A stretch of 64,000 bases of DNA, taken from IMG/VR virus record IMGVR_UViG_3300043419_002186, positions 21,792 to 85,791 of that record, one strand, 5' to 3'. The notes under the pieces are model-generated. The model did not search any database, was not told the DNA's origin, and saw nothing but the letters and a program-made list of their open reading frames with translations. This document shows positions 1,114 through 62,902 of this stretch, one piece after another. Position 1 is the stretch's first letter; each line of letters opens with the position of its first letter. Source of the DNA: a virus. The position numbers and the translations under genes were made by a program.

Positions 1114-2271
1114 ATGTCTTCGTACTCCTTCGGTGACGGAATCCTTCCTCCCATCAAGCGCAAGCCCGCTTCGACGCCTCCTGCGTCGGAGATGGCGCAG
1201 TCGTCCATTGCGCCCGCTCCTCTCGCGGGTCCGATGGATAGCCAGCACGTCGCTGTCCTTGAGGGCGTGGACCATGAGCAGCAGCTCGGGACCGTCATCA
1301 ACCTCGCGCAGAAGCGGGAGCAGAAGACGGCACCGAAGAGCGCCCGAATCGATTCGGCGTTCAAGGAAGTGAAGGCTTCGCTCCCCCGCATGCCCTCCAC
1401 CTTTCAGGTGACCGGCGGCGCGGGAGGAGCCAAGCCGAGCAGCTCGGGAGGAGTGAAACAGCTTTACGCGGAGTCGCAGACGGGAGGAGGCGCTCCTCCC
1501 TGCATGACGGTCTGCGACCTCGTTTACATCATCGAGGCCGCGAAGCGCAGTCGCGCGGTGACGGTGAACTTCCCCTCCACCTCGAAGCTCGGTGTGGCGC
1601 GGGCGCAGACGCAGCTCGCTTGCGTTCCTCGCACGCTGAACGCGGACCAAGCGAAGGCCTTCGCCCCTCGGGCGCAGCAGATGCTCGATGCCATGCGCCC
1701 CTCGGGTCAGGACGTGGCCGAGTGCGTGGCTCGTTACTGCCGCGAGCACGGATGCCCCACGGACGGCGTGAAGGTCGCGACCATCGAGCAGGTCTGCCAG
1801 CTCGTCTTCGCCATCAAGGCGGCGCAGTACGGCCGTTCCTTCAGCATGAGCGTGAACGGCTCGAACGCCACGCTCTCCGCGGAGCAGATGAGGGAGCAGG
1901 GCCCCCGCATCGCCGCCACGCTCAAGGCGATGCTCGACAAGGGGCTCACGACTTCGGACGTGATCGCCGCGTGCGAGAAGAAGTACTGCGAGCAGTACGG
2001 CTGCGCTCCTTCTGCGACGACGACGACGACGGGCGGGGGAACGGGCGCGGGTGCCGGTGCTTCCTGCCCCGAAGGCACGCACTTCGACATGGCGAGCGCC
2101 GAGTGCGTTCCCAACGATGTGCCCGTCGCCAAGGTGGACACGGGGAAGAAGGGGTTCGGCTGGCTCGCGGCTGCTGGTGTCGCCGCGGTCATCGCGAAGA
2201 AGGTTCTGTTCGTGTCCGCGCTCGCTGGAGCGCCCAAGCTGGTCGAACTCGAAGACGAAGACGAGGAGTGA
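1114..2271 (+). CDS. Cys-rich membrane-anchored putative virion protein with two ~90-aa internal repeats
   Basis: Repeats VCDLVYIIEAA...YCREHGCP and VCQLVFAIKAA...YCEQYGCAP; CPEGTHFD...C module; C-terminal hydrophobic segment. Confidence 0.7.
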   Translation: MSSYSFGDGILPPIKRKPASTPPASEMAQSSIAPAPLAGPMDSQHVAVLEGVDHEQQLGTVINLAQKREQKTAPKSARIDSAFKEVKASLPRMPSTFQVTGGAGGAKPSSSGGVKQLYAESQTGGGAPPCMTVCDLVYIIEAAKRSRAVTVNFPSTSKLGVARAQTQLACVPRTLNADQAKAFAPRAQQMLDAMRPSGQDVAECVARYCREHGCPTDGVKVATIEQVCQLVFAIKAAQYGRSFSMSVNGSNATLSAEQMREQGPRIAATLKAMLDKGLTTSDVIAACEKKYCEQYGCAPSATTTTTGGGTGAGAGASCPEGTHFDMASAECVPNDVPVAKVDTGKKGFGWLAAAGVAAVIAKKVLFVSALAGAPKLVELEDEDEE

Positions 2272-2274
2272 AAG

Positions 2275-3255
2275 ATGCGCGCCCCCAAGTACCCGCTCAT
2301 GCCCGCCACGCTGCAGGGCCTCGCTGGACGCCCCATCACGGGAACCACCATCGCTGACGTGGTGCGCGCTCAGAAGGACGCGCTGCTCTACTCGGACAGC
2401 CGCGTGCCTCTGACGGGGCAGTACTACGACAAGTTCCGTGCGACGCAGCAGGTGCGTACCCGCGCTCCCGCGGAGTTCACGAACGCGCAGGTGCGCGGCA
2501 TCAACAACAAGGCGGGTGGCGTGAAGAGCTTCGCCGCCGCGACCTACAGCTACCCGTCGGGGCAGATGGTCATCGGCGCCGCCCTCGCGGGCATGGACGT
2601 GTCCACGCAGACGAGACTTGCGCGCTCGCGTCTCGCGGGCCTCGGTGCTGCCACGTTCGATGATTCCAACATCGACACCTCGCGCATCTCCGCTGGTGTC
2701 CTTGGCTTCGGCGCCGATGAGGAAGATGGCGCCGTCTGTGGCAAGGACTCGGGCAAGGGCGGCTGCGTGCAGGTGAAGGTCAACCGCGTCCGCAAGGCGC
2801 TCGCCGCGGCCGGGAAGGACCCGAACAACGACGCCGCGGTCCTCTACTTCGGCGCGATGCGCTGGGGCACCATCGACTCGCTCACGAAGGCCGTGCAGCA
2901 GTACTGGGACCTCTTCCTCAAGGGAGAGCGGGCCCCGGACAGCAACTACGCAGACCTTCTCGGAGAGGCGAAGAAGATCGCGGAGAAGGCCGACAAGGTC
3001 ATAAGCGACCCGACCGTGCAGAAGGGCATCTCGACCGTCTCTCAGTACACGGGCAGCGGCGTCAGCCCGATGGGCACCTATCGCCCGCTCCCCGGTGCTC
3101 GCTCCATCAGCACCACCGCGGCGCAGGTCTCCGAATCGGTTCGTCGCGCGGCGCTGCCCCCTGAACGAAGCAGTGGCATGGGCATCGGCACCGTCGCCAT
3201 CGGAGCCGCTGTCCTCGTCGGTGGCTTCTTCGCCTACAAGGCCTTCGCGAAGTAG
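2275..3255 (+). CDS. Putative virion protein, C-terminal TM anchor, several LxG motifs
   Basis: LQGLAG, LAGMD, LAGLGA; C-terminus IGTVAIGAAVLVGGFFAYKAFAK. Confidence 0.7.
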   Translation: MRAPKYPLMPATLQGLAGRPITGTTIADVVRAQKDALLYSDSRVPLTGQYYDKFRATQQVRTRAPAEFTNAQVRGINNKAGGVKSFAAATYSYPSGQMVIGAALAGMDVSTQTRLARSRLAGLGAATFDDSNIDTSRISAGVLGFGADEEDGAVCGKDSGKGGCVQVKVNRVRKALAAAGKDPNNDAAVLYFGAMRWGTIDSLTKAVQQYWDLFLKGERAPDSNYADLLGEAKKIAEKADKVISDPTVQKGISTVSQYTGSGVSPMGTYRPLPGARSISTTAAQVSESVRRAALPPERSSGMGIGTVAIGAAVLVGGFFAYKAFAK

Positions 3256-3264
3256 GAGCCCCAA

Positions 3265-4902
3265 GTGCAGATGATGCCGCGACAGCTCGCGGGCCTTGGC
3301 GCAGGTCCCAAGGACGCGCTCAAGCCCGAAGAGCTGCCCAGCGGCATCCTCTTCATCTACCCGCGCTACGTGCTCAAGGTGCTCGGGGACCTCCTCGATG
3401 CACCTGAGTCGCTGGCGCAGATTCAGGCGTGGTCCTACGACCCGCCCGAATGGGTGAAGAAGAAGAACAAGCTCGGTCAGGATTCGTACCGTCTCGCGGC
3501 TTTCCTTCGCACGCGTCTGAACTTCCGAATCCCGAAGAACTGGTTCGACAGTCAAATCGATTCGGACGCTTCGCTCGTCATCGAGGGGAAGCGCAAGTAC
3601 TCGGATGTCTCGACCGAGACGCTGGCCGAGTGGGCGACGAACCCGCCGCCTTGGAGGCCTTGGAACCGCGACAGGGACATCACGGCCGTCGTGATGCCCG
3701 CGATTCTGTGGGCGCAGCGCATCGTCTCCGCTCGCGCTGGCTTCGACATCCCGTTCTTCGTGGACAGCTCCATCGAGGAAATCTCCGACGACTTGGTCCG
3801 TGCAAACGACAAGGACCTTCTCGACTGGGTCGAAGCTCTCTGCAACATGCTCACAAGCTGGGGCATCAGCTCAGCGAATGCAGCGGGCAAAGAGGTTACG
3901 AAGCAGGTCGTCGAGAAGACAGCGACTCAGACGGCGAAAGATGCGGCCCCCGGTCTTTGGGAACAGGCGAAGAAGAAGGCACTTGAAGAGGGGACGAAGG
4001 AAGCCAAGCGCGCCGGAACGGCGCTCATCCGCAAGGGCATCTCCGAGACGGGCGACCTGCTCACGCCCGATGGGGCATCGACCTTCGCGAAGGAGGGTAT
4101 TCAGTCCGCTGAAGCAGGTGTCACTTCTGCAGCGCTCGCCTTTGCCTTCGCCTCGACGCCCATCGGATGGGTCTCTCTCGCTGCCATTGCCGCGGCTCCC
4201 GTCCTCTGCTGGGGAGCGAAGAGCTACGCCCTCAAGCTCATCAAGGACAACCTGCGAGACTGGCATCCCGACTTCGTCCCCACGTTCATCGGCAGCGTGT
4301 ACCAGAAGCGCTTCGGCATCGTCCCCGGCGCGGATGTCATCTCGAACCTCGACCAGCGCTACTCGGCTCTCATCAGCGCGAACAGCATCGCGAAGGCCGT
4401 CGCCTCTCCCGAGAACGACCCCGCGGTCCTCGCCGCGGTGACGAAGCGGCAGAACGAGATTCAGGCCACCATCACGAAGTCGCTCGACTACTTCGGATGC
4501 AAGACGCCGAACCCTGACCGGGTGGCCGCGTTCGCAGACCGCGCCTTCAACAACTTTTGGTCTCCCGAAGAAATCAACCGGCGCGTCTACAACGAGAAGG
4601 CGTGGCTCTGCAGCGCCAGCTCCATCAAGGAGCTGCGCACCATCGTCATGCGGCCTGCCATCTCCTCTGCCGCTGCCCGCATCACGAAGGCCGTTGCGGC
4701 GATGCGCAACAGCATCAAGCCCCCCATCGCTCCCGTGACCCCCTCGGGCAAGCCCCCCGTAGGCCCTGTGCCTCCCGCAGGGCCCGCGAAGGGCGGCATC
4801 GGGCCCGCGCTCGCTCTCGCCACTGGCGGCTTCTTCGTCGGCGGCCCTCCCGGTGCTGGCATCGGATTCGTGCTCGGCCTCATGGCCGGAAAGAAGAAGT
4901 GA
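3265..4902 (+). CDS. Large membrane-associated putative virion protein
   Basis: 545 aa; N-terminal LAGLGA; internal and C-terminal Gly/Ala-rich hydrophobic segments; RBS AGGAG. Confidence 0.7.
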   Translation: MQMMPRQLAGLGAGPKDALKPEELPSGILFIYPRYVLKVLGDLLDAPESLAQIQAWSYDPPEWVKKKNKLGQDSYRLAAFLRTRLNFRIPKNWFDSQIDSDASLVIEGKRKYSDVSTETLAEWATNPPPWRPWNRDRDITAVVMPAILWAQRIVSARAGFDIPFFVDSSIEEISDDLVRANDKDLLDWVEALCNMLTSWGISSANAAGKEVTKQVVEKTATQTAKDAAPGLWEQAKKKALEEGTKEAKRAGTALIRKGISETGDLLTPDGASTFAKEGIQSAEAGVTSAALAFAFASTPIGWVSLAAIAAAPVLCWGAKSYALKLIKDNLRDWHPDFVPTFIGSVYQKRFGIVPGADVISNLDQRYSALISANSIAKAVASPENDPAVLAAVTKRQNEIQATITKSLDYFGCKTPNPDRVAAFADRAFNNFWSPEEINRRVYNEKAWLCSASSIKELRTIVMRPAISSAAARITKAVAAMRNSIKPPIAPVTPSGKPPVGPVPPAGPAKGGIGPALALATGGFFVGGPPGAGIGFVLGLMAGKKK

Positions 4903-5702
4903 TGGGACCGAATCGATTCGCACTTGGATGCTGGGACAAGGACGACGCGCTCGGCTGCACTCCCGAGATGCCGCCACCCGTGCTCGGCAACGCGTTCACC
5001 GACAAGCTCAAGTCCATTCCTCCGAAGGGCTGGCTCGCCATCGGCGGCGCGGCGCTGCTCATCCTGCTCATCGCGAAGCGCAGGACCGTGGCCACTGCCG
5101 CTCAGAGCGTCGCTGAGCGTGCCAAGGAAGCTGCGCAGAGCCTCGTCGGTGCGTTCCTCACCCTCAACGCCATCCGCAAGGCGATGCCGAACGTGAGCCT
5201 CGCCAAGGCGACTTCGCTGCTGCCCGACCTGACGCTCGCGCTGGACGAGGCGAACATCAACACCCCGAAGCGCGTCGCCGCGTTCCTCGCGCAGGTGGGA
5301 CACGAATCAGGCGACTTCCGATACATGGAGGAGCTGGCGAGCGGCGCTGCCTACGAGGGACGCAAGGACCTCGGGAACACGCAGCCCGGGGACGGCAAGC
5401 GTTTCAAGGGCCGTGGTCCCATCCAGCTCACGGGGCGCTCGAACTATCGCGCCTTCACGAACGCCATCGGCAAGAAGTACGGCGTGGACTTCGAGAAGAA
5501 CCCGGAGCTGGTCGCGGACCCCCGCTGGGGCTTCAAGGCGGCGTCGTGGTTCTGGAACTCGAAGAACCTCAACAGCTACGCGGACAGGGGTGACTTCAAC
5601 TCCATCACCTACCGCATCAACGGCGGCTACAACGGGAAGGCCGACCGAGACAAGCGTTATGCTATCGCCTCCGCGGCACTGATGCCGGTGGGCAACGCGT
5701 AA
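4902..5702 (+). CDS. Glycoside hydrolase family 19 (chitinase/lysozyme-like) lytic enzyme with N-terminal TM segment
   Basis: AAFLAQVGHES, FKGRGPIQLTGRSNY, ASWFW, ITYRINGGYNG motifs; start overlaps the upstream stop (TGATG). Confidence 0.9.
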   Translation: MGPNRFALGCWDKDDALGCTPEMPPPVLGNAFTDKLKSIPPKGWLAIGGAALLILLIAKRRTVATAAQSVAERAKEAAQSLVGAFLTLNAIRKAMPNVSLAKATSLLPDLTLALDEANINTPKRVAAFLAQVGHESGDFRYMEELASGAAYEGRKDLGNTQPGDGKRFKGRGPIQLTGRSNYRAFTNAIGKKYGVDFEKNPELVADPRWGFKAASWFWNSKNLNSYADRGDFNSITYRINGGYNGKADRDKRYAIASAALMPVGNA

Positions 5703-5714
5703 CAGGGGAAGAGC

Positions 5715-5921
5715 ATGGCAGCACAGGGGCAACCGAAGGTCCTCCAGACGATGAAGTTCAAGACGTCGCAGGAGGCGCAACAGAAGCTGATGCAGCTCGG
5801 CGCACGGTTCCGCATGAGGGACACCGCCACGGGGGGGCTGCTCTACAAGACACCTGCAGGAGTGGTCCTGCGAGTTCGCCAACCTGACGCAGTCGAGGTA
5901 CTATCGAACTGCGTCTGCTGA
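5715..5921 (+). CDS. Small hypothetical protein
   Basis: 68-aa ORF in operon context with purine-rich RBS. Confidence 0.6.
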   Translation: MAAQGQPKVLQTMKFKTSQEAQQKLMQLGARFRMRDTATGGLLYKTPAGVVLRVRQPDAVEVLSNCVC

Positions 5922-5935
5922 AACAGGAGTGAGTC

Positions 5936-6520
5936 ATGGCCGAAATGATTGCGATGCTGGGTGGTCTCGGAAGCTCGGGGTGCGTGGGCTGCTCGTCGGG
6001 CCGTGCGCTCTCCATCAACGGGGCCCCGATGACCCCTGAGCAGGAGATGCTGGCCGCTCGCGCGGGCACCATCAGCTCCAGCCAGTACAGCCCCCGCCTC
6101 GCGGGCGCGCCCATGACTCCCTCCATCGCCGCCTACATGGCGCGTCGTGGCGAGATGGCTTCCGCGCAGTACAACCCCAACCTCGCTGGTGCCCCCATGA
6201 GCGTCGCAGAAGAGGCCCGCGCTGCGCGGGCGAACGTCATCGTCTCACAGCAGTACAACCCGAACCTCGCGGGCGTGCCGACCACGGCGCTCTCCGTCGC
6301 GGATCAGGTGCGTGCGAAGGCCATCACCAGCGCTCCGTACTACATGAAGCGCAGCGTCAACCCGTACTCGATGCTGACGAAGGGTCAGGCCGGGACGCTG
6401 CAGGGCATGGGCGACTGGTGGTCCTCGCAGTCCACGACCATGAAGGCCGTCTACGCCACCGCGGGCATCGTTGCCGCTTGGTGGGGCGTCCCGAAGCTCG
6501 TTCGCGCGGTGCGAGGCTAG
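5936..6520 (+). CDS. Putative virion protein with 28-aa tandem repeats and C-terminal TM
   Basis: Repeats of (I/L)xG(A/V)P...SxQY(S/N)Px; MLGGLG and LQGMG motifs. Confidence 0.75.
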   Translation: MAEMIAMLGGLGSSGCVGCSSGRALSINGAPMTPEQEMLAARAGTISSSQYSPRLAGAPMTPSIAAYMARRGEMASAQYNPNLAGAPMSVAEEARAARANVIVSQQYNPNLAGVPTTALSVADQVRAKAITSAPYYMKRSVNPYSMLTKGQAGTLQGMGDWWSSQSTTMKAVYATAGIVAAWWGVPKLVRAVRG

Positions 6521-6522
6521 TC

Positions 6523-6768
6523 ATGTACCGACCCCACGACATCATCGCGAGCGGCTCGCACCGCAAGCCGATGGCCATCGAGGTCATGAGCCTCAACGGC
6601 ATGCAGCCGGGGCTCTCGCGTGCTCAGGCCGCGAGCCTCACCGCTGTCACCGTCAACGGCCTCATGGGCCTTGGCGCTGAGCCCGACGAGACGAAGCAGC
6701 CTCTGTGGCCCATCCTCGCTTTCGCCGCTGTCCTCGGCGTCGTCCTTTGGAAGAAGAACCTCTACTGA
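6523..6768 (+). CDS. Small TM protein
   Basis: LNGMQ and VNGLMGLGA motifs; C-terminus LWPILAFAAVLGVVLWKK. Confidence 0.7.
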   Translation: MYRPHDIIASGSHRKPMAIEVMSLNGMQPGLSRAQAASLTAVTVNGLMGLGAEPDETKQPLWPILAFAAVLGVVLWKKNLY

Positions 6769-6778
6769 GGCTGCTGTC

Positions 6779-7039
6779 ATGCCGACCGCGAAGCTGATGG
6801 AGCTGCTGTCTCACCCCATCGCTCTCGACGCCTTCGACTCCCTCTCCAAGGGCTCACACCCTCAGAGCGTTCTCGCGGGCATCGCGTCGGACATGGCAGC
6901 ACTGAAGATTCGTCAGCTCCTCGGCGGCGTCGAGAAGGACGAATCGATTCGCTCGAAGAAGGATGACATCGTGGACGCGGAGTACACCGTCATCGACGTG
7001 ACCCCCGGCGTGAAGCGGCGCACCACGAAGGAGAAGTGA
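6779..7039 (+). CDS. Small hypothetical protein
   Basis: MPTAKLMELL... 86 aa, GAGG RBS, host-like codon usage. Confidence 0.65.
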   Translation: MPTAKLMELLSHPIALDAFDSLSKGSHPQSVLAGIASDMAALKIRQLLGGVEKDESIRSKKDDIVDAEYTVIDVTPGVKRRTTKEK

Positions 7040-7040
7040 C

Positions 7041-7286
7041 ATGCCCTCGAAGAAGAAGTGCAAGTTCGGCCTGAACAAGCGCACGAAGAAGTGCCTCAAG
7101 CACCCGCGCAAGAAGGCCGCTGGCACTCGCAAGAAGGCTGCTGCTCCGAAGAAGCGCCGAAGCGCGGGCACGATGGACTGGCTCACGAAGGGGCGAAAGC
7201 CCGCGCGCGTCACCCGCAGGGGTGGCATGACGATTCGGGAGTACTCTCCCGAGGACTCGATGAAGGCCATCTACGGCGAGTGGTGA
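7041..7286 (+). CDS. Lys/Arg-rich basic (histone-like) protein
   Basis: MPSKKKCKFGLNKRTKKCLKHPRKKAAGTRKKAAAPKKRR. Confidence 0.7.
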   Translation: MPSKKKCKFGLNKRTKKCLKHPRKKAAGTRKKAAAPKKRRSAGTMDWLTKGRKPARVTRRGGMTIREYSPEDSMKAIYGEW

Positions 7287-7299
7287 GAAGGGGACTCTG

Positions 7300-7584
7300 A
7301 TGACTGCGCGGCTCTACTACATCTTCATGGACGGATGCGGTGCCTGTCAGATGGCGAAGCCCGAGCTGAAGAAGTTCGAGCGCGCTCACCCCGAGGTTCA
7401 GGTCGTTCCCGTGAACCTGCTCACGGTCGGGGACAAGTGGAAGCACGACTGGAAGCCGGAAGCGACTCCCACCTACGTGCTCGAAATCCCGGGGCATGAG
7501 CGCACGCGCTACGAGGGCGCGCTCATGGCGAAGCACATCGAGCAGTTCATCCGAAAGTCGAAGCAGATGATCGGAGCCCAGTGA
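7300..7584 (+). CDS. Thioredoxin-fold protein
   Basis: CGAC active-site motif after an N-terminal beta strand; ATPT cis-Pro region. Confidence 0.85.
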   Translation: MTARLYYIFMDGCGACQMAKPELKKFERAHPEVQVVPVNLLTVGDKWKHDWKPEATPTYVLEIPGHERTRYEGALMAKHIEQFIRKSKQMIGAQ

Positions 7585-8927
7585 TGTTCAAGAAGAAGAA
7601 GAGCGCGGGCCTCGCGGGCGTCGAATCGATTGGCGACGACAAGTACTGCGTGGGCGCCAACCCCGACGCCAAGGTCAACATCTCCGCGGCTCGTTGGGCT
7701 CTCGACTTCCTCGAACGTCGCGCGGAAGAGGACCCGTGGTTCAACGGGACGACGCTCATCTTCCACTCGGGGCAGGTGAACTACACGAAGCATCAGCTCG
7801 TCGCTGAGAAGTTCAACACCTTCGGTCCCCGCGTCTCTCTCAACGAGGACGTCGCTCGCGGCATCGCGTGCACGCCCGCGCTGAACCCTGTCGCTGCTTC
7901 GGGCAAGAAGGGCGTCGCACTCACGCAGACGACCCCGTTCATCTACAAGACGCCGCTGCTCGCGGCGAAGTTCATCGAGGTCTGCGGCGAGAACGGCGAG
8001 AAGTGCCGAGGGCACAAGGACCTTGAGAAGCTCCTGCTGCAGCTTCGCTCGAAGGGAGCGCTTCGACCTGAGCACAAGCGCGCTGGCATGAAGGGCTTCT
8101 CCGCTTCCGTCCCCGCGGGCTTCGTCGGCTGCGACCCGAAGAAGCCGGTCAAGAAGCCCTACGCCGTCGGCTTCGGCACGAAGATTCGCGAGCTGGTGCG
8201 TGAGTACGCGGGAGACCCCAACGCGGTTGCCGTGGACCGTCACATCGCCGCTTGGGTCTGCAAGCACTACGGAACGTCGAGCCCCGAAATCAAGCAAGCG
8301 TGCCATGGCGCGTTCGCTGCGATGAGGCTCGAAGACGAGCAGAAGAAGTACGCGGTGGACTCCAAGAAGTGGAAGTCGCTGCAGAGGAAAATCGACAAAA
8401 TCGAGGACAAGACCAGTGCTTCGGTCGGTGCCTACGAGGAGTCGAAGAAGTACTCCATGCTCAAGAGCGTCGTCGCGGACGAGGCCAAGAAGTGCGGCGT
8501 CTCTCCCGCGCTGCTGCAGGTGGGCGCGTGGTTCAAGCAGACCTGCCGCGTCGGCGGGAAGAACGAGATGGTGTGGCTCGGCGCGAAGCGCAAGCTGCGC
8601 GAGGACGAAGACCCCGCGTGCGAGCTGGAGAAGGAAATCGTCGATGCCTGTGCCTCGGACTCGATGATTCACGGCTCCATCGGCTTCTGCGACGCGGACA
8701 GGAAGAAGAAGTTCTGCAACGCGTTCGCCATCCGCAAGGCCAAGATTGCGAAGGGGGAGATTGACCCCGACGCCGTCGGCAAGAAGAAGAGCAGGAGCAG
8801 GAAGGGAGCCAAGAAGGGCTCGAAGAAGGGGAAGGCGCTCAGCGGTCTCTCCTCCTCGGACATGGGCAAGGGCTGCTCCGTCGCCGGTCGCAAGGCTGTC
8901 CTCTCGCTCCTCGACAGGGCCATCTGA
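7581..8927 (+). CDS. Cys/Lys-rich protein with HhH-GPD/DNA-glycosylase-like region
   Basis: AVAVDRHIAAW and GVSPALLQVGAW resemble the VDxH and C-terminal QxxxW motifs of HhH-superfamily phage proteins; GLAGV and LSGLS at the ends. Confidence 0.5.
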   Translation: MMFKKKKSAGLAGVESIGDDKYCVGANPDAKVNISAARWALDFLERRAEEDPWFNGTTLIFHSGQVNYTKHQLVAEKFNTFGPRVSLNEDVARGIACTPALNPVAASGKKGVALTQTTPFIYKTPLLAAKFIEVCGENGEKCRGHKDLEKLLLQLRSKGALRPEHKRAGMKGFSASVPAGFVGCDPKKPVKKPYAVGFGTKIRELVREYAGDPNAVAVDRHIAAWVCKHYGTSSPEIKQACHGAFAAMRLEDEQKKYAVDSKKWKSLQRKIDKIEDKTSASVGAYEESKKYSMLKSVVADEAKKCGVSPALLQVGAWFKQTCRVGGKNEMVWLGAKRKLREDEDPACELEKEIVDACASDSMIHGSIGFCDADRKKKFCNAFAIRKAKIAKGEIDPDAVGKKKSRSRKGAKKGSKKGKALSGLSSSDMGKGCSVAGRKAVLSLLDRAI

Positions 8928-10163: not shown

Positions 10164-10240
10164 GCTGAATCGATTCGGGCGTTTGCGCCCATAACCGCGC
10201 CCCGTCGGGCGCAAGTACCCGAAAGGGAAGGAGCACGAAC

Positions 10241-22552: not shown

Positions 22553-22556
22553 CGAC

Positions 22557-52286: not shown

Positions 52287-52419
52287 CTGCTCTCCAGTGC
52301 GTAGCCTTCGATGAACGGGAGCCCCTCTGCCGAGGCGCGTGTGCCGTGGAGCAACGTGAATGTCCCTCTCATCGTTGGGAGGGGGCCAAGTCCCGAATCG
52401 ATTCCGAAGAAGTCCCGCA

Positions 52420-54283: not shown

Positions 54284-55189
54284 TTACCAGAACACGGGAC
54301 CGGGCTCCAAAAAGCCCGTTTGATTCCCGACTGTAGCACGCTCAAAGGTCTGCTGAATGACCTTGGTGGAATCTTCGCCAAGCCGTCCTGCGTGAAGAAG
54401 AGCCGCCAAGCTCGTCCAGTGCTGTTTCCAGTTCAGCCCCGCCGAGTCGTCTTTCCGAATGGATTCAAGATGCTTCTCGACGTTTCGCTTGAAGTTGACC
54501 CTGCGAAGATAGTCGGCACGCCTTCGCGTGAACTGGTCGTGGAAGTACACGAGCCGGTTCAGGAACGACTCTTCTTGACGTGCTTCACAAAGCTGCCTCC
54601 ATGAGATGCGGGTCAGGTCTTCAAGCATCTGCAAGAAAACTTTCTCGATGGAACCCTTGCTCATCACATCGGGGGCGCGGAGAATCTGCTTGAGCACCCA
54701 CTCGTCCCACGGCAAGGCCCTCTGACCCGTGATGAAGTCCACCCGACCCTGTCCCGTCAACCGGGCAAAGAGCGCAAGAACCTCGACAGCGTCCTGAATC
54801 GATTCGGGAACCTCTTCGGGTCTCAGTTGCGCCGCAGTCGAGAGGTTTGCCTTTCCTGCAATCTCTGCCACGTAGGGGTACATCGGATGCGGGAAGCGTG
54901 TCTGCGGCATGTGCGGCATGTCGGGAAGGTCCTCGATACCCTGCGTCTTCCCGAACTCTTGGAAGTGCGCCCACGCCGATCCAAGCATCCCTCGCATCGC
55001 GGGACTCAGACTGGCGCGGTAGAAGACGACCATCTGCGGGTTTCGCTGCTCTCGCTCATCAAGGTGCTTGAAGAACCGGCGCAGCGCCATGACGTAGCTG
55101 TGCGTGGCCTTCTCGCCCAAGCCCGCATTCTTCTGCAGGTACTCCCGGTATTCGGTGAGCGGAAACTGGGGGACGGTGGCTTCACTCAT
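54284..55189 (-). CDS. Protein with integrase N-terminal SAM-like domain, no catalytic motifs
   Basis: YREYL...GLGEKATHSYVMALRRFF; AAGGAGG RBS. Confidence 0.6.
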   Translation of the reverse strand: MSEATVPQFPLTEYREYLQKNAGLGEKATHSYVMALRRFFKHLDEREQRNPQMVVFYRASLSPAMRGMLGSAWAHFQEFGKTQGIEDLPDMPHMPQTRFPHPMYPYVAEIAGKANLSTAAQLRPEEVPESIQDAVEVLALFARLTGQGRVDFITGQRALPWDEWVLKQILRAPDVMSKGSIEKVFLQMLEDLTRISWRQLCEARQEESFLNRLVYFHDQFTRRRADYLRRVNFKRNVEKHLESIRKDDSAGLNWKQHWTSLAALLHAGRLGEDSTKVIQQTFERATVGNQTGFLEPGPVFW

Positions 55190-55600: not shown

Positions 55601-56005
55601 ATGAGACACGCTGCCGTGGCCGAAGAGCTTCCGTCACTCGACGGTGACGATGACGACGTGCTGGCAGAGCTGTTGCCCCTTGCAGAGCCCGAATCGATTC
55701 CCGAAGAGAAGCCTGTCACGCGAGGCGACTGTGCAGAGGCTGTCAGGCCGTGCCCTTGGGTCTCCTGCCGCTTCCACCTGTACCTCGACGTCCGTGCCGA
55801 CGGTGTGCTCCGTGTCAACTTCCCCGACCGTGAGCCCGACGAGATGATGGCGTCCTGTGCCCTCGACCTTGCAACAGACGGCCCGCGCACCTTGGAGCAG
55901 GTGGCGGGCCTCATGGGGATGAGCAAGGAGCGCGCTCGTCAGATTGAAGAGGGTGCACTAGTGAAGCTGAAGACGCACCTCGCGAAGGGCTACATCCGCG
56001 ACTAG
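55601..56005 (+). CDS. Zn-finger + sigma70 region-4 HTH protein (family recalled from myxobacteria)
   Basis: TRGDC...RPCPWVSCRFHLYLDV...NFPD...CALD...TLEQVA...SKERARQIE. Confidence 0.85.
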   Translation: MRHAAVAEELPSLDGDDDDVLAELLPLAEPESIPEEKPVTRGDCAEAVRPCPWVSCRFHLYLDVRADGVLRVNFPDREPDEMMASCALDLATDGPRTLEQVAGLMGMSKERARQIEEGALVKLKTHLAKGYIRD

Positions 56006-56439: not shown

Positions 56440-56587
56440 TGTGTGCTCCCGCGGGAACCGCCCCGCCTGTGTCCTTAGCGGTGAGGAGCGTACCTCTCCC
56501 CAGTGTTCTCGGCCACTTGCGTGACCTACCCACCGAATCGATTCGTGGTGACTTGACTTTCCCAAGGGAGTGGGCAGACTGACTCCC

Positions 56588-57067
56588 ATGCCCATCATCC
56601 GAAACCCCTTCCACGTTATCAAGGACTACGCCTACCGGCGTCGGCTCAAGAAAGAGCTGGTCCACCTCATCAAGAACAAGCATCCCGCGCTCGACCGCGG
56701 CCTGCAGTTCGAGGGCGTGACGCACACGAACCCCGACTCGCGAAGCATGACCATCATGCTTGTTCTGCAGGACATTCTGCGCGAGCACCGCGAGTTCTCC
56801 GTCACCAACTGGCCCGGTGGCATCGCCCTCGTTCGCACAGCTCAGGTCGCTGAGCTTCCCGATGACATCCGGGGTGTGAATGAGGAGACGAACTTCATCG
56901 TGCGCGGTGGCACGGATAAGGGCGCGCACCTCGTCGATAACGCGCCCACGCCCAAGGGTGCTGAGTACCGCGAGGACGACCAGCTCACCGACGCCTCGCG
57001 AGAGAAGCTCGAAGAGAACCGCAAGCGGCTCGAAGCCGAGCAGAGGAGCCTTGATGCAGCCCGTTGA
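56588..57067 (+). CDS. Hypothetical protein
   Basis: 159 aa; TTGACT promoter-like element upstream. Confidence 0.65.
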   Translation: MPIIRNPFHVIKDYAYRRRLKKELVHLIKNKHPALDRGLQFEGVTHTNPDSRSMTIMLVLQDILREHREFSVTNWPGGIALVRTAQVAELPDDIRGVNEETNFIVRGGTDKGAHLVDNAPTPKGAEYREDDQLTDASREKLEENRKRLEAEQRSLDAAR

Positions 57068-59507
57068 GATTCCGATTGATGTGACCCCCGGCATGCTCAT
57101 CGGTGCCGTGGGTTCGGACGGCACGAAGCACGTGTCCCCCGAAGCACAGGACATTCTCGAACGTCTCAAGTCGCACTACCAAGGCCTCGGGAAGCCCTCT
57201 GCCGCTCACAACTACCATCGGCACCTGAAGAGCTTCTTCTCTTGGGCCGAGGCGCAGGGCTACACCATCAAGACGCTGCCCGTGAGCGCTGTCGAGGACT
57301 TCCTCTCCGCTCTCGCTGCCGCGGGACAGAAGGAATCTACCCTCTACGTGATGCGGACCCAGCTCCGTAGCGCGCTGCGCGAGTGCAACAACACGCTGGG
57401 CGTGGACTTCGCACACCTCGAAGCACAGTCCGGGGCGAAGCCCAAGCATCTCAAGAAGGCGGACAAGGAGCGCGAGAAGGCCAAGAGGGCCGAGGTCCGC
57501 GCCGAGAAGGCCATCGCCACTGCCGCCGCCATCCGCGCTGCCCATCAGGTCGGCGGTTACTCGGTTCCCCAGCCGCGGGACTATGCCGCTGCCGTCTCCG
57601 AGGCCGCTGCCATCGCCGCTGCCGAATCGATTCAGTCCACCATGACACCCCCCGAGGAGTCCCCCGTGAGTACAGAGAGCGTCCCCACTTCCGCGGGTGC
57701 AGCGTCCGCGGGGGGGCAGTCCCAACAGCCCATCCATGTCCACGTAAACGCGCCCACGCCCAATGGTCGTCCCACGCCGACCATCGGCGCTCCCGCTCGT
57801 CCCGTGGCTCCCGTGGTCCCGAAGATGTCGGTGACCATCAACCAGTTCGCGTTCACGGGGCCCCACATCCGCATCACGCGGCTCGCGGACGGCACGGACC
57901 CGCTGACGCCCCCGGGGTCCGAGGTCGCCGTCACGACCATCCCGCTGACGCAGATTGCGCCCCATGGCGACGTGTCGGGGTTCATGCAGCAGTTCATCAT
58001 CCCCAACATCCGTGGGCTCTCGCCTCTGGCCTCGCAGGTCCACTTCGTCTTCCATGAGCTGAACGACCGTCGTCAGCCCACGGGCCGTCGGGACGAACTC
58101 ATCGTCGGGCTCCCCATGACGTTCTCTCAACAGGGGCCCATGCCCCAGCCGCAGTCCCCTTCCTTCGGCGCACTGCCCGCTGGCTACGGGGCCCCTGCCG
58201 CTGCCCCCGCCAACGACGCGACCAGCTTCCTTCTGAAGAAGCTCGACGAGGAAGCCGCGGACGCGAAGGCCAAGGCCGATGCTCTTCAGCAGGAGCTGCG
58301 CAAGGCCTCTGACGCACAGACCGTGTTCATGCTCAACCAGCAGTTCCAGCAGATGCAGGACCTCAAGCGAGAGCTGGAGGAGCGAAAGGCCATCGAGATG
58401 CAGCGCATGATGACGCCTCCCCCGATGCCCATGACGATGCCCACTCCCGTGACCATCGAACCGATTCGCCCCGACACCTCGCTTGCCGACGCCATGCGCG
58501 CGATGGCCGAGCAACAGGCGAAGACCCTCGAAGTGCTCGCCACCGTCATGCGCCCCGCGCCCGCTGCCCCTGTCAAGGACACGGCCGAGTGGCTCGTCCC
58601 CTTCATGGGCCAGATGCAGCAGCAGGCTCAGGCACAGGCCGCGGCTCAGCAGCAGATGATGCTGACCATCATGCAGGGTCAGGCGGTGCAGCAACAGGCC
58701 GCGGCAGAGGCGCAGCGTCAGGCCTCGCAGCAGATGATGCAGCTCATGATGGGCAAGGAGTCCACCGTCGAGAAGATTCTCATCGCGCAACTGCAGGAGG
58801 CAAAGGCTGCTGCCAGCGCCCCAAAAGGGGACGACGTCGAGGACTTCGCGGAAAAACTTCAGAAGATGAAGATGGTCGCGGAGATGATGGGCGGTAACGG
58901 TGGTGGTGGCGGCGGTGGCGGTCTCATCAGCGAGCTGCTGGCCAATGCCGAGCAGATTGGCGCTGGAGCCGCGCAGATTATCTCCGCTGCCAAGGACCGC
59001 GCCGCTGGCAACGCCGTGAAGGCCCCGGACGTCAACGTCGGCGGCAACGTGACCGCTCCCGCGGGCGAGCTGCCCCCTGCCTCTGCGCCGCAGGAGGCCC
59101 CGAAGATGCCCGAGATGCCACGTGAGGTCTCACAGAACCTCGACGCCATCATCGACGCCGCGACCGCTGAGAACGCCGAGGGCATCATCAACGGCGTGCT
59201 GGGCTACATCAAGTCGATGACCGAGGCACCCGAGCCTTGGCCGAAACTCGCGCAGCGGATGCTGAACGGCTTCGCGGACGCTGATGACGAGGGCGAGCTT
59301 TACACGTTCGCCAAGAGCATGTGGATGCTCGCAAGCCGCACCCACAACCGCGCCCTCTCGAAGCTGGTCGCTGCCGTCATCGCGGAGAACTACTCGCAGA
59401 TGCACGAAGCCATGTTCGGGACCCCGAGGGCACTGCCGGGGGCACAGGACGAGGTCGAAGAAACCGTCGAAGTCGAAGAGACGCAGCAGCAGGAGGCGCA
59501 GTCGTGA
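57054..59507 (+). CDS. Large protein: N-terminal integrase SAM-like domain plus Pro-rich and Gln/Met-rich coiled-coil regions
   Basis: AAHNYHRHLKSFFSWAE...VEDFLSAL; poly-Q/M segments; GAGGAG RBS. Confidence 0.75.
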   Translation: MQPVEIPIDVTPGMLIGAVGSDGTKHVSPEAQDILERLKSHYQGLGKPSAAHNYHRHLKSFFSWAEAQGYTIKTLPVSAVEDFLSALAAAGQKESTLYVMRTQLRSALRECNNTLGVDFAHLEAQSGAKPKHLKKADKEREKAKRAEVRAEKAIATAAAIRAAHQVGGYSVPQPRDYAAAVSEAAAIAAAESIQSTMTPPEESPVSTESVPTSAGAASAGGQSQQPIHVHVNAPTPNGRPTPTIGAPARPVAPVVPKMSVTINQFAFTGPHIRITRLADGTDPLTPPGSEVAVTTIPLTQIAPHGDVSGFMQQFIIPNIRGLSPLASQVHFVFHELNDRRQPTGRRDELIVGLPMTFSQQGPMPQPQSPSFGALPAGYGAPAAAPANDATSFLLKKLDEEAADAKAKADALQQELRKASDAQTVFMLNQQFQQMQDLKRELEERKAIEMQRMMTPPPMPMTMPTPVTIEPIRPDTSLADAMRAMAEQQAKTLEVLATVMRPAPAAPVKDTAEWLVPFMGQMQQQAQAQAAAQQQMMLTIMQGQAVQQQAAAEAQRQASQQMMQLMMGKESTVEKILIAQLQEAKAAASAPKGDDVEDFAEKLQKMKMVAEMMGGNGGGGGGGGLISELLANAEQIGAGAAQIISAAKDRAAGNAVKAPDVNVGGNVTAPAGELPPASAPQEAPKMPEMPREVSQNLDAIIDAATAENAEGIINGVLGYIKSMTEAPEPWPKLAQRMLNGFADADDEGELYTFAKSMWMLASRTHNRALSKLVAAVIAENYSQMHEAMFGTPRALPGAQDEVEETVEVEETQQQEAQS

Positions 59508-59704: not shown

Positions 59705-59972
59705 GGCGAACGTGGAGTGGAAGGTGTCGGAGGTAGTGGTCGGCAATCCGTACGAGGGCGTGCGCTGGGCAAGGGCGCGTTTCATGATGTCGGGTCGTTG
59801 GTTGTGGCAAGCGTGTGACGCTCAGGGCGTCATCAAGGACGGTGTCGCTGGCGACATCGGTGAGTCGAAGGAGCGTGCAGAGGCGTGGATGGAGCGGTCT
59901 CGGCTTCTCCCCGAATCGATTCGGCGGGAAGGACACCTGCTCAAGTGTGCTTCGGCTTGTGATTGTGAGTAG
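59697..59972 (+). CDS. Small hypothetical protein
   Basis: Coupled ORF. Confidence 0.5.
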   Translation: MREANVEWKVSEVVVGNPYEGVRWARARFMMSGRWLWQACDAQGVIKDGVAGDIGESKERAEAWMERSRLLPESIRREGHLLKCASACDCE

Positions 59973-60624: not shown

Positions 60625-61377
60625 ATGGCAGCGAAGAAGAAAAAGGTGGACGGACGCACGAAGGAGGGCAAGTCCCTCAAGAAGAAGGCCACGGCGCGTG
60701 AGTCCAAGAAGGACGTGAAGAAGCCGAAGCTCAAGCCCGTCCGCGGGACCACGAAGAAGACCGTGGATAAGGCCAAGCTGCACAAGGTGTCGAAGAAGGA
60801 CCCGCGCCCCCGCGTCGGTAGCGTCGTCCTCTTCACACAGGGCGAGGGTCGTCGCATGACCTTTGGCCTCGGCATCTATGACTCGCGCGTCGGGGACATC
60901 GCCAACGTCATCGTGGGAGAGAAGCCCGCTCAGCGCACCGTGTTCGCTGGCGTGCACGAACTCTACAAGCCGCTGCCCACGGAGAAGGCTCTGCACGCCT
61001 TCGTGGTCGAATCGATTCGCGAGGCCTACGAGCGCGGGTTCAGGGCTGGTGAGCACAGCGCGCTGGGACAGACGCACTCCGTTGTTGCTCCGATTGTGGG
61101 CGGCATCCTTGACATCCCCGTCGAGACTGTTGCGCTGAAGACGGCAGAGGAAGAAGCCCCGAAGTCCGACGACATGTCTCTCATGTACGCTGCCTTTGCC
61201 AAGCGGCCCGAGGCCCAGCAGGTCGTGGAGCGTGCCGAGGAGCTGCTGGACTCGGACGTTCGCGTGTCCCCTGACCCCGAGGCCGTTCGCGAGGCCATTG
61301 AGGCTGTCCACGAAGAGCAGACGGAGGCCGAGAAGCTCGCCATCATCTCAGAGGTGCAGAAGGCTCCCCTGCTCTGA
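60625..61377 (+). CDS. Protein with Lys-rich N-terminus and acidic C-terminus
   Basis: MAAKKKKVDGRTKEGK... Confidence 0.7.
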   Translation: MAAKKKKVDGRTKEGKSLKKKATARESKKDVKKPKLKPVRGTTKKTVDKAKLHKVSKKDPRPRVGSVVLFTQGEGRRMTFGLGIYDSRVGDIANVIVGEKPAQRTVFAGVHELYKPLPTEKALHAFVVESIREAYERGFRAGEHSALGQTHSVVAPIVGGILDIPVETVALKTAEEEAPKSDDMSLMYAAFAKRPEAQQVVERAEELLDSDVRVSPDPEAVREAIEAVHEEQTEAEKLAIISEVQKAPLL

Positions 61378-61598
61378 TGTGAAAAAGACTGTTGCGCTTA
61401 TCGGAGGTCTCGCTGTACTGTTCACCTGCTGCGGAACGCGCGGGCAAGGCGCGGAACCGGCGGTGGGCAGGTAAGACCCCGAGAGGCGACTGGTCATCGG
61501 CTCTCACGGCCTCCGAGGAGAAATCCTCGGGGGCCGTTCCTTTTCGCGGGTGGCGGGGTCCGTGGCCTCGGGGTACAGTCGCTGCCATTGGAGGCTTC

Positions 61599-62372
61599 AT
61601 GGCAGACGGCAATCGGCCCATCGGATGGAACCCGCTTATCGGATTCGGGTTCACTGCGCTCGGCGTAGGCTACCTGTACGAGGTGTGGAAGCACCGTCAG
61701 CCCGCTCTCCTTCCCGCTCCCGAAGGACTGAACGGTCTCGGCTACGCGAGGAGCGCCCCTCCCCCAAAAGGCGAACCCCTCGTCGTTCGCGACGGGGTCC
61801 GAAAAATCAAGTTCTACCCCGCAGGTGACATCGACCAGCGCGTCGGCTACATCATGCGGCAGATTCAGATGGATTCGCTTGACCCCCGCGTCATCAGCGA
61901 GGCCAGCGCCATCATCGGCGGCAAGTGCCCCGTGGAGCGCGGCGGTCTTGACTGGTGCGTTCCCCCCAAGAACTGGCGCGCTGAAATCTCCAATCTCTTC
62001 GGGGCTGTGCACAGCGCGAACAGCCGCATCGGCATGCGCTACACCCGCGACCACGATGGTGTGGACATGTTCCGCTCCTCCGCGCTCATGCGCCGCATGC
62101 CCGTGGGCGACTGCGACGACATGGTCATCCGCCTCGGCGCGATGCTCAAGGCCATCGGCTACAGCGTGAAGTGCCGCGTCGTTGCCCCGAAGGGCGCTCC
62201 CGGCCAGTGGGCCCACATCTACCTGATGTGCGGCTCTGAGGCGGGCAACCAGCAGCCTCCCAAGTGGCTCCCGCTGGACCCCACGGAGCCTGAGAACGGT
62301 GTCTTCTGGGAGGTGCCCGACAGGCTCATCTCCACGAAGAAGGACTTCCTCGTCCCCGCTGGCGTGCCGTAG
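61599..62372 (+). CDS. Transglutaminase-like (papain-fold) Cys protease with N-terminal TM
   Basis: Triad GDCDD / WAHIY / PLDPT; RYTRD; LNGLG after the TM; GGAGG RBS. Confidence 0.85.
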   Translation: MADGNRPIGWNPLIGFGFTALGVGYLYEVWKHRQPALLPAPEGLNGLGYARSAPPPKGEPLVVRDGVRKIKFYPAGDIDQRVGYIMRQIQMDSLDPRVISEASAIIGGKCPVERGGLDWCVPPKNWRAEISNLFGAVHSANSRIGMRYTRDHDGVDMFRSSALMRRMPVGDCDDMVIRLGAMLKAIGYSVKCRVVAPKGAPGQWAHIYLMCGSEAGNQQPPKWLPLDPTEPENGVFWEVPDRLISTKKDFLVPAGVP

Positions 62373-62422
62373 AGGTCGAGGGCTCGTTCCCGTGCTACTG
62401 TGCCCCTGAACACGGAGGCCCG

Positions 62423-62902
62423 ATGTACCCTGTCGAATCGATTCGAGCGAACACCCAGCAGTCCGACTTGGAGTCGAAGCTCTACTCCATCGAGACGCTG
62501 CTCCGTCTGAACCTGCTCACGGCAGGTGGCACGCTCCCCATCACCAACGTGGGAAGCGCGTTCAACGGCGCTGTCATCGGAACCACCAGTCGCTACGTCG
62601 AAATCTACAAGAACAACTACAAGCACATGCTGGCCATCCGCATCTTCGCGGAGTTCGACACGGTCACACCGGGCATTCAGAAGGCATCGTTGGCACTGAC
62701 CAACGACCTTTCCAACTACTCGCGCATCGACCTGCTCATCGAGGGCCTCAAGGACCGAAGCGACACGGTGTGGCTGCGTCCGAACCAGTCGCTCTACATC
62801 AACACCGCGGACACGGCCGTTGACCTCTCGGGCTCCATCTTCCGCACCCTCGTCTTCGACCCCCTCGCGCTCGCTGACTACATCAATCAGGTCGGCGCGT
62901 AG
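62423..62902 (+). CDS. Beta-rich putative virion protein
   Basis: 159 aa, GGAGG RBS. Confidence 0.65.
   Translation: MYPVESIRANTQQSDLESKLYSIETLLRLNLLTAGGTLPITNVGSAFNGAVIGTTSRYVEIYKNNYKHMLAIRIFAEFDTVTPGIQKASLALTNDLSNYSRIDLLIEGLKDRSDTVWLRPNQSLYINTADTAVDLSGSIFRTLVFDPLALADYINQVGA

Follow-up and report, generated by a model that had tools for sequence, protein, structure and literature searches.

An evenly spaced, genome-wide palindrome array in a viral genome: a candidate lattice of loading sites for an orphan ParB-type protein

The window analyzed here is a 64,000-nt stretch of viral DNA, bases 21792–85791 of the complete 85,791-bp virus record IMGVR_UViG_3300043419_002186 (genome G000, with 127-bp terminal repeats), and the element in question is a 10-bp palindrome, GAATCGATTC, that recurs throughout it. 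The array occupies positions 1346–62444 (coordinates are those of the window unless a genome is named), has no strand, and consists of 47 exact copies plus eight one-mismatch members with a mean gap of 1.33 kb. A pattern search returned all 47 exact copies and all eight variants where a first-pass annotation of the sequence had placed them; the GC content, which that annotation put at ~67%, is 64.8% for the genome. Across 100 dinucleotide-preserving shuffles, 0.10 exact copies are expected in the window (maximum 2), and sites with at most one mismatch number 55 against 1.8 expected. The whole 85.8-kb genome carries 59 exact copies, or ~1 per 1.45 kb, and the observation is real and highly non-random. 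With 59 exact and 12 one-mismatch copies genome-wide, recognition is sharp. The motif is also wider than 10 bp: C is found at −1 in 45 of the 59 copies and G at +1 in 50, the 12-mer CGAATCGATTCG is present 34 times, and symmetry around the central CG is strong over 12 bp, weak over 14 bp and extends to 18 bp in one version.

Many of the sites lie between genes. The copy at 4910–4919 occupies a gene junction, 8 nt past the stop of 3265–4902(+), and the collinear relative G001 has a one-mismatch copy at the matching position. The copy at 10167–10176 is intergenic, 3 nt past a stop codon and identically positioned in G001, and those at 13936–13945 (behind an upstream − strand gene) and 14632–14641 likewise begin 3 nt past a stop. 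At 16010–16019, another gene junction, the site has GGGAGGAG and then the next start codon after it on the − strand. Further intergenic copies lie at 16946–16955, at 18140–18149 and 19176–19185 (each adjoining a GC-rich hairpin), at 19821–19830, at 22516–22525 and 24378–24387 (both within the same repeated intergenic element), at 23764–23773 (in the loop of the inverted repeat CCGCGGGG..CCCCGCGG), at 36490–36499 (14 nt upstream of a − strand start codon), at 52395–52404, and in a divergent intergenic region at 56535–56544. The copy at 27262–27271 falls in a 1.4-kb stretch poor in open reading frames (ORFs).

Other exact sites are within genes. The first, at 1346–1355, is read in the IDS frame of gene 1114–2271(+), and the site at 9192–9201 lies in gene 8927–9271(+). 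The tyrosine recombinase gene contains two copies, at 11080–11089 and, 16 nt inside the gene start, at 11731–11740, both identically positioned in G001. Other copies close to a gene start are those at 13306–13315 (15 nt inside, − strand), 32651–32660 (9 nt), 45464–45473 (22 nt) and 62435–62444 (12 nt). Sites read in the ESI frame include 6941–6950, 21553–21562 (DUF2201/VWA gene; G001 copy 33 bp off), 28073–28082 (gene of a 329-aa protein, HTH-329), 34383–34392 (PolA gene; G001 copy 126 bp off), 42663–42672 and 43476–43485. The PolA gene has a second copy at 35233–35242, where G001 has a near-copy at the matching position, and the SMC/Rad50-like gene has one at 29627–29636 (G001 copy ~28 bp off). 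Copies 31403–31412 (NRF frame) and 31650–31659 are the sole close pair, 247 bp apart. The SNF2 helicase gene carries copies at 47040–47049 (G001 copy 81 bp off) and 47847–47856, and single sites lie in the AAA_24 gene (38644–38653), the primase gene (49780–49789), the sigma-70 region-4-like gene 55616–56005(+) (55691–55700) and the gene of an 875-aa protein (57624–57633). The remaining in-gene copies are at 40357–40366, 50852–50861, 53262–53271 (which extends to a 16-bp palindrome, CTCGAATCGATTCGAG), 54796–54805, 59913–59922 and 61009–61018.

Gene calls made for this analysis (130 genes) cover 90.7% of the genome, leaving 9.3% non-coding. Against this background 24 of the 59 copies are intergenic where 5.5 would be expected (p = 1.6e-10), so that ~40% of the copies lie in the ~9% of the DNA that is non-coding, and 35 lie in genes. 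The first-pass annotation had noted in-gene copies in all three reading frames and concluded that selection acts on the DNA and not on the protein. All three frames are occupied, but unevenly, with 23 copies in ESI, 7 in IDS and 5 in NRF genome-wide. The conclusion itself stands: shuffling synonymous codons within genes yields 1.06 in-gene copies compared with the 35 observed, and the tripeptide E-S-I occurs 28 times where 4.1 occurrences are expected (~7-fold). Twenty-three of these 28 have the spelling GAA-TCG-ATT-C, in which GAA and ATT are minority codons (23% of Glu and 20% of Ile, respectively). The ESI excess and the use of rare codons indicate that the proteins have been bent to carry the DNA word.

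The copies are also evenly spread, as had been suggested. Gap lengths have a coefficient of variation (CV) of 0.46 over the window and 0.66 over the genome, compared with ~0.97 for random placement (p ≤ 0.0004), and a single gap is shorter than 500 bp where 16.9 would be expected. The sole sparse stretch, at genome positions 5–18 kb, is outside the window and spans three very long genes. The one-mismatch members lie at 3133–3142 (GAATCGGTTC) and 3554–3563 (AAATCGATTC), both inside the largest gap, and at 7623–7632 (GAATCGATTG), 30863–30872 (GAGTCGATTC), 37964–37973 and 54457–54466 (both GAATGGATTC), 48888–48897 (GAATCGCTTC) and 58458–58467 (GAACCGATTC). That such variants fall in the larger gaps is borne out by their median distance to an exact copy, 758 bp compared with 349 bp expected (p = 0.002), and the same placement far from exact copies holds in the whole genome and in G001. 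Adding them to the array lowers the CV to 0.40, whereas random additions raise it to 0.55. One-mismatch copies behave as weaker array members. Even spacing with near-cognate copies filling the gaps is the pattern expected if each site serves a limited neighborhood and weaker sites still work.

We next consider relatives, which were fetched through the polymerase, primase, AAA_24 and SMC-like proteins. Counting the motif in these contigs revealed that the array is a clade trait with lineage-specific dialects, five in number (GAATCGATTC, GATCGATC, CATCGATG and the asymmetric AAACCGATTCC and CAACCGATTG), which share the core AYCGAT. Type I, cGAATCGATTCg, is found in G000 and in G001 (38 copies over 57 kb), and G014 represents the same virus as the latter. 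Type II, GATCGATC(c), is carried by G004, L006 and L243, with ATCGAT present 21 times in 14 kb compared with 1.4 expected. Type III, CATCGATG, is found in the complete 75-kb genome G011 (ATCGAT 114 times compared with 7 expected). Type IV, rAAACCGATTcc, is asymmetric and occurs in G012 (37 copies in 43 kb) and L005, and type V, tCAACCGATTGg, also asymmetric, in L242 and L238. The one-mismatch member of the window at 58458 contains AACCGATT, the core of the type IV and V dialects. Gap CVs are 0.39–0.58 in types I, II, IV and V. Two relatives, G013 and G015, have no iterated word and no decayed remnants of one. A primase tree places types I and II together in a supported clade, outside which V, IV and III branch, and in polymerase and nuclease trees G013 groups with the type IV genomes; because it is nested among array-bearing lineages, its motif-less state looks like a loss. 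A scan of viral contigs for the exact 14-mer found 102 stretches with one copy each, and only G001 carried an array. ATCGAT occurs once in the type IV/V genomes compared with ~6.6 expected from base composition, an expectation that codon effects make unreliable, and we make no claim from it.

Two further observations concern sequences related to the motif. Over G011:41300-46600 (L257), a block of small leftward genes adjoining the ParB-like gene of G011, the density of ATCGAT triples to ~1 per 250 bp, and many of the copies overlap start codons as GGAGG-C-ATCG-ATG. In L324 (SXGQ01601411.1:1-12401, from a 75-kb metagenome contig), which encodes a ParB-like protein 43% identical to that of G011, the word GATCGAC reaches 3.3 per kb, or 3–5 times its usual rate. 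Its spacing is random (CV 1.0) and it corresponds to the favored codon pair ATC-GAC; we did not count it as an array, and it may reflect either a codon-pair effect or one more dialect.

The asymmetric dialect of G012 allows the orientation of the sites to be read. Its 37 copies of AACCGATT are oriented 22+/15− in random order, and the in-gene copies (11 sense, 15 antisense) are unrelated to gene strand. Neither orientation subset is more even than a random split, although numbers are small; the evenness belongs to the combined array. Random orientation together with combined evenness implies recognition on duplex DNA, without polarity, which argues against RNA-level signals, stoperator-type operators, polar signals of the Chi or KOPS kind and one-strand primase sites. 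Known primase recognition sites are 3 nt long, and we regard it as extremely unlikely that the array consists of priming or initiation signals for the DUF3987-type primase-helicase at Okazaki-fragment-sized intervals. The 1.2–1.4 kb spacing is Okazaki-like, a palindrome would serve both strands, and the primase ranks with the best conserved genes in the clade, but the asymmetric copies show no switch of orientation along the genome, the per-strand subsets are uneven, and G013 retains primase and helicase yet has no array.

Comparison of G000 with G001 shows how the sites turn over. The two genomes are collinear with ~50% protein identity (63% for PolA). Seven of 32 mappable G001 sites are at the same position as in G000, and 17 are within 150 bp of a G000 site compared with 6.4 expected (p < 0.0002). 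Inside single genes (those for the polymerase, the SMC-like protein, the VWA protein and the helicase), the copies of the two genomes are 28–126 bp apart. What is conserved is a site in the neighborhood, not a base.

These properties bear on the idea that the palindromes punctuate gene expression, as promoters or operators, terminators, RNA-processing sites or translation signals. The closest model is the stoperators of Cluster A mycobacteriophages (L5, Bxb1), 13-bp sites that recur almost unchanged dozens of times across a phage genome and are recognized by a single phage protein, in cluster-specific dialects that co-evolve with the repressor. The intergenic excess would fit such a role, as would the leftward operon at 13–24 kb, where a site lies at nearly every junction, 1–3 nt past the stop, and adjoins hairpins or twister-type ribozymes. 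Several copies immediately precede GGAG and a start codon, and many G011 copies overlap start codons as a Shine–Dalgarno (SD) sequence in the form SD-N-ATCGATG. Stoperators, however, are asymmetric, transcription-oriented and confined to intergenic DNA, whereas here orientation is irrelevant and 60% of the copies are in genes, long ones included. The palindrome is directionless and the asymmetric dialect has no sense bias; in-gene sites are replaced nearby within the same gene in G001; and intergenic positions would be favored in any case as those that cost least. An association of the motif with an SD sequence plus start codon was rejected for G000, where 11 cases compare with 8.0 ± 2.7 in the random control, and is weak in G011 (16% compared with 10%). 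Punctuation of gene expression is thus a very unlikely explanation.

We then asked whether the motif belongs to a cellular host. A search for the 14-mer across 185,579 prokaryote species, each represented by one genome, gave at least 120 matches, from many phyla and, among those listed, all single copies. Five whole cellular genomes contain one 10-mer per 100 kb to 3 Mb, compared with one per 1.45 kb in the virus. In 201 Myxococcota genomes the 12-mer is present in 0–8 copies in 200 and in 99 copies in one, the 4.8-Mb G190. As a free-standing array G190 was rejected: the copies inspected with their 12-mer context all fall within a dispersed repeat of ~125 bp, of which there are ~99 copies, each holding CGAATCGATTCG and a half-copy, GCGAATCGAGG (e.g. 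L275:1450-1560, L276–L293). The match is probably a coincidence, with the chance of one such match in a sample of this size estimated at roughly 10–20%; conceivably, a shared DNA-binding preference lies behind the repeat. A Myxococcota host gained no support from a search for relatives of the primase, found in 0 of 401 genomes, a result that shows little. As far as could be tested, then, the motif is virus-specific and not a host motif of the HIP1 type: no searched cellular genome approaches the viral density, let alone equals or exceeds it.

The viral motif resembles HIP1 (GCGATCGC) of cyanobacteria, likewise a short palindrome that is highly iterated, has a CGATCG-like core and runs through coding sequence. 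Elhai reportedly described HIP1 in 2015 as a property of the host chromosome linked to cognate methyltransferases. The viral motif differs in being found at density in no searched cellular genome, in having no methyltransferase partner among three families searched, and in its even spacing. A second parallel is with the uptake signal sequences (USS) of Pasteurellaceae and DNA uptake sequences (DUS) of Neisseriaceae, exact 9–12-mers that occur ~1 per kb in both orientations with significantly even spacing (PMC1939737). Like the viral array, these are enriched in non-coding DNA, lie in many cases within genes in preferred frames (35–65% within genes; PMC1939737), and form dialects one or two bases apart around a conserved core. 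They are, however, asymmetric motifs of competent cellular bacteria and are read outside the cell by uptake machinery. Together these systems raise the possibility of a molecular drive with no role in the infected cell, through biased repair as for HIP1 or through preferential uptake, packaging or recombination as for USS/DUS, and the concerted change of all copies between lineages does look drive-like. We nonetheless judge drive to be quite improbable. Mutational drive would produce Poisson spacing instead of a CV of 0.4–0.6 with near-cognate copies in the gaps, no methyltransferase partner (PF01555, PF02086, PF00145) or Vsr-like partner was found, and the link to a ParB-like gene set out below would be a coincidence. 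Moreover, we know of no viral counterpart of DNA uptake and of no viral process for motif-based uptake or packaging of kilobase fragments.

The first-pass annotation had also proposed a modification mark and had read the palindrome as two GANTC sites. Neither suggestion gained support: the sister dialects GATCGATC, CATCGATG and CAACCGATTG are without GANTC, and no modifying enzyme was found. In six-frame searches covering three major methyltransferase families, PF01555 had no match in G000, nor had PF02086 or PF00145 in any of G000, G001, G011 and G012; the C5 cytosine methyltransferase family PF00145 is in none of the array-bearing genomes searched. Similar searches of array-bearing genomes found no Tet/JBP dioxygenase. 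The motif-less G013 does encode a C5 cytosine DNA methyltransferase (PF00145, E 9e-33) at G013:31332-32285 (−) (L263). GATC is almost eliminated from several of the viruses, with 35 occurrences compared with 350 expected in G000, 0 compared with 165 in G012 and 0 compared with 39 in L005, and is not avoided in G001, G004 or L242; G013 is also listed among the avoiding genomes. The GATC-containing dialect GATCGATC is found only in a GATC-tolerant lineage, and the dialects of G000 and G012 are GATC-free. This avoidance points to unmodified DNA and to strong GATC-specific restriction in some of the lineages, a pressure that would restrict the range of viable dialects. One T-to-C substitution, from AATCGATT to AACCGATT, destroys an ATCGAT (ClaI-type) site, and its loss may be the reason that one half-site changed.

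Such observations bear on the possibility that the array is a mark of self-identity or a means of enzyme control, whether as a modification target, a Chi-like signal to a nuclease or translocase, or a decoy for host defense, with the dialects arising from an arms race. The near-exactness of the motif is as found for enzymes, even spacing would cap the length of unprotected DNA, G013 carries its methyltransferase as if by an alternative strategy of protection, and the dialects respect restriction pressure. Chi-rich phages are also known (PMC12315714), and the Chi of lambdoid phages resembles the array in being an exact short motif that is over-represented in the phage genome and controls a nuclease-helicase (PMC12315714). 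Chi, however, is the host's motif and is polar, whereas this motif is not shared with a host as far as tested and has no polarity: the orientation of the asymmetric dialect is random, its evenness is not per strand (in a small sample), and none of the cellular genomes searched is enriched for the motif. The negative searches for methyltransferases of three families and for Tet/JBP also count against an enzyme-directed mark, strong GATC avoidance speaks against global DNA modification, and one-mismatch copies behave like functioning members, unlike the all-or-none recognition typical of restriction. We therefore consider this explanation improbable.

A mark of the DNA that is read by a binding protein is the best available interpretation, and the leading candidate for the reader is encoded within the array. 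The gene at 24948–26153 (−), with a likely true start at the ATG at 26045, predicts an N-terminal ParB domain with an NGKQRMRAA box followed by a helix-turn-helix (HTH)-like stretch that is visible in an alignment of the ParB-like proteins. The product matches PF02195 with 29.7 bits (cut-off 26.3) and the PHROG ParB-like family at 1.5e-16; TIGR00180 (E 5.9e-9) and Noc models match residues 96–210, up to profile position 145 of 186, with scores below the curated cut-offs. At the predicted box II position (GxxRxxA), the ParB-like proteins read NGKQRMRAA, NGKTRFRAA and DGRRRTLHA. A ParB-family gene was found by six-frame search in both complete array-bearing genomes, G000 and G011, and is also present in G001/G014. 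In the motif-less G013 no such gene was found, the interval from recombinase to SMC-like gene being covered and only 5 kb long. Among ~45 loci with a neighboring SMC-like gene, clear arrays occur only where a ParB-like gene adjoins.

In G000 the ParB-like ATG is preceded, ~38 nt upstream, by the longest version of the motif in that genome, the 18-bp perfect palindrome GGCCGAATCGATTCGGCC at 26082–26099. The second longest palindrome of G001, GCGCGAATCGATTCGCGC (18 bp, with different flanks), is 17 nt upstream of the corresponding ATG. By analogy, these palindromes resemble the usual layout of an autoregulated ParB or KorB gene. No ParA (PF13614) was found in G000, G001 or G011 by a search that was positive in all 14 control genomes, which means that this is not a ParABS partition system; an orphan, Noc-like arrangement is possible. 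ParB-family sites are palindromes of 13–16 bp at which a dimer loads and then slides or spreads as a cytidine triphosphate (CTP) clamp (PMC8429893, PMC7053999, PMC11790492), and the G000 palindrome matches the parS, NBS and OB sites in size and symmetry, with two of the sister dialects being asymmetric. Noc and KorB are also alike in using many dispersed sites and not one centromere, and genes of ParB-family systems often have a site in their own promoter; in G000 it is a ParA-less ParB-family gene that co-occurs with the array. The array differs from these systems in being far denser (59 sites on 86 kb, whereas NBS sites are scattered across a 4-Mb chromosome), in having sites that are mostly within genes and evenly spaced, in the asymmetry of some dialects and in the marginal family scores of the protein. 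RK2, for comparison, has 12 OB sites on 60 kb.

Several observations weigh against the ParB-like protein as the reader. Identity between the G000 and G001 proteins is only 34%, and the helix presumed to make the recognition contacts reads KPQDTVVSIF in G000 but VPESTARNTL in G001 despite the same 10–12-mer; DNA-contacting residues should be retained in a true reader, and this divergence counts against it. Two dialects are strictly asymmetric, with AACCGATT in 37 of 37 copies and never AACCGGTT or AATCGATT, which is awkward for a symmetric homodimer. In G011 the evenness is mild for the ATCGAT core (CV 0.79) and absent for the 8-mer CATCGATG (0.95). The co-occurrence of gene and array rests on three independent array-bearing lineages and is confounded by phylogeny, and the type IV and V contigs do not span the interval where a ParB-like gene would lie. 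A structure model of the protein, built on a 3-sequence alignment, was unusable (pLDDT 49, pTM 0.34).

A different reader is an alternative, if an unlikely one: HTH-329, the sigma-70 region-4-like protein, the 875-aa protein, or a host DNA-binding protein that is recruited or titrated. Besides the poorly conserved recognition helix of the ParB-like protein, this alternative is favored by the distribution of HTH-329, which has the same presence pattern as ParB (found in G000, G001 and G011, absent from G013), and by the occurrence of the sigma-70 region-4-like and 875-aa proteins in the array-bearing G000, G011 and G012. Strictly asymmetric dialects would better suit a monomeric or pseudo-dimeric reader. 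Cellular regulators with such a preference also appear to exist, as the ideal operator of the LacI-family regulator Cra apparently contains the same core, TGAATCGATTCA (10.1101/080929). However, HTH-329 is less conserved still (G000 and G001 share 29% identity), with an HTH match that falls short of the Pfam cut-off, and none of these alternative candidate genes has an extended palindrome upstream, unlike the ParB-like gene. A host reader would leave unexplained why closely related phages differ in dialect when one dialect is common to G000 and G001, two genomes that differ in GATC avoidance and so probably in host or exposure to defenses.

Our preferred reading, to which we assign about an even chance, is that the phage's orphan ParB-type protein uses the array as a lattice of loading sites. 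By analogy with ParB–parS, Noc–NBS and KorB–OB, a dimer of the phage protein would nucleate on the 12–14-bp palindrome of duplex DNA and then slide or spread as a CTP clamp across ~1 kb of neighboring DNA, and with one site every 0.65–1.4 kb, loaded clamps could reach all parts of the viral chromosome. We infer each of these steps, from binding and the identity of the binder to its spreading, as well as the purpose of the resulting coat, which could be compaction, marking of the DNA as viral, gene silencing, or hand-over to the adjacent SMC/Rad50-like ATPase. Clamp loading would explain the avoidance of close pairs and the presence of weaker sites in large gaps, as well as the nearby replacement of lost sites and the preference for cheap positions, namely intergenic gaps and E-S-I codons. 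The marking of the DNA by a bound protein, as first proposed, thus gains support from the PF02195 match, the co-occurrence of gene and array and the upstream palindromes, and its attribution to the ParB-like protein stays provisional. The purposes put forward with it, namely genome condensation, packaging or self-marking, are conjectural.

The array has one published, unexplained precedent. Cluster O mycobacteriophages such as Corndog carry a 17-bp dyad repeat, TGTTCGG-N3-CCGAACA, in 34 invariant copies over ~70 kb with only ~3 one-mismatch copies; ~40% are in short intergenic gaps and the others lie just inside gene starts or deep in genes (PMC4351075). The repeat has no meaningful orientation and is absent from the host genome, and the phages encode a protein with a ParB-like domain; its authors proposed that a dimeric protein binds the repeat, considered transcriptional control improbable and assigned no function (PMC4351075). 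The G000 array likewise has more than 30 invariant dyad copies in genes and gaps, without orientation, and no searched cellular genome is enriched in it. It differs in sequence, host phylum and phage lineage and is denser (1 per 1.4 kb). Even spacing and turnover with local replacement are demonstrated here, and the clade adds a set of dialects, some of them asymmetric, and a nested relative without the motif. Genome-wide site arrays in phages are a class that is little known and unexplained; the present array is a new and well-resolved case, which contributes the dialects, a duplex-level non-polar signature, the local replacement of sites and a lineage that has lost them.

If clamps of the ParB type are loaded, the array would represent a new use of CTP clamps, in coating or organizing a whole viral chromosome instead of marking a centromere, and the same explanation would extend to the Cluster O repeats. 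A broader proposal, which is tentative and which we think rather doubtful, is that many phages carry a chromosome-wide 'address code', in which a lineage-specific lattice loads a ParA-less ParB-type clamp or its equivalent that coats the genome and tells it from host DNA. Dialects would then diverge fast, in this clade as far as asymmetric forms, under restriction systems and possibly competing phages, and the clade would be a natural series for following the co-evolution of a DNA-binding specificity with ~60 dispersed sites. The natural experiments that it offers are five dialects on one AYCGAT core, an array-loss lineage, and two lineages of the same dialect with moved sites. Such arrays are also a strong in silico marker, able to link the viral contigs of a lineage and to reveal phage DNA-binding specificity without culture.

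The virus itself has no close cultured relative among 50,697 phage records, the best PolA match being 26% identical. Recognized genes encode a family-A DNA polymerase with a uracil-DNA glycosylase (UDG)-like N-terminus, a DUF3987 primase, an AAA_24 ATPase, a PD-(D/E)XK nuclease, a tyrosine recombinase, a MoxR-type ATPase with a DUF2201/VWA partner, an SMC/Rad50/SbcC-like ATPase, the ParB-family protein and a small sigma-70 region-4-like protein. The window contains no tRNA. The large proteins of the presumed structural module (628, 702, 1163, 545, 448 and 385 aa) have no Pfam or PHROGs match, and with the same databases no terminase, portal or capsid family was recognized in window 1–10200 or genome 1–21800. 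The gene of HTH-329 (27477–28466, −) encodes a weak N-terminal HTH, and that of the SMC/Rad50/SbcC-like ATPase (28476–30134, −) adjoins both candidate readers, which makes its product a possible partner. The 1.4 kb between the ParB-like and HTH-329 genes (26154–27476) has no credible ORF and holds two motif copies. The sigma-70 region-4-like protein is encoded at 55616–56005 on the + strand, and the 875-aa protein, which has an integrase-type DNA-binding domain and no PDB or NCBIfam match, at 56880–59507.

Three neighboring intergenic gaps (with the sites at 22516, 23764 and 24378) share a related repeated element in which the palindrome is in a hairpin loop. A type-P5 twister ribozyme is found at 24878–24940 (−), at 38.9 bits compared with the Rfam gathering score of 37.6; it is the one copy for which the twister assignment is confirmed by Rfam. 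The MoxR-type AAA ATPase and DUF2201/VWA pair (20894–23699, −) is present only in the type I viruses (G000, G001/G014), and a look-up of the ATPase in Protein Atlas returned 'Uroviricota' and no host. Finally, the SNF2-type helicase gene (45934–48600, −) is interrupted by an intein with an HNH endonuclease domain, and the alignment with the G001 orthologue falls into two blocks, as would be expected if the latter lacks the intein.

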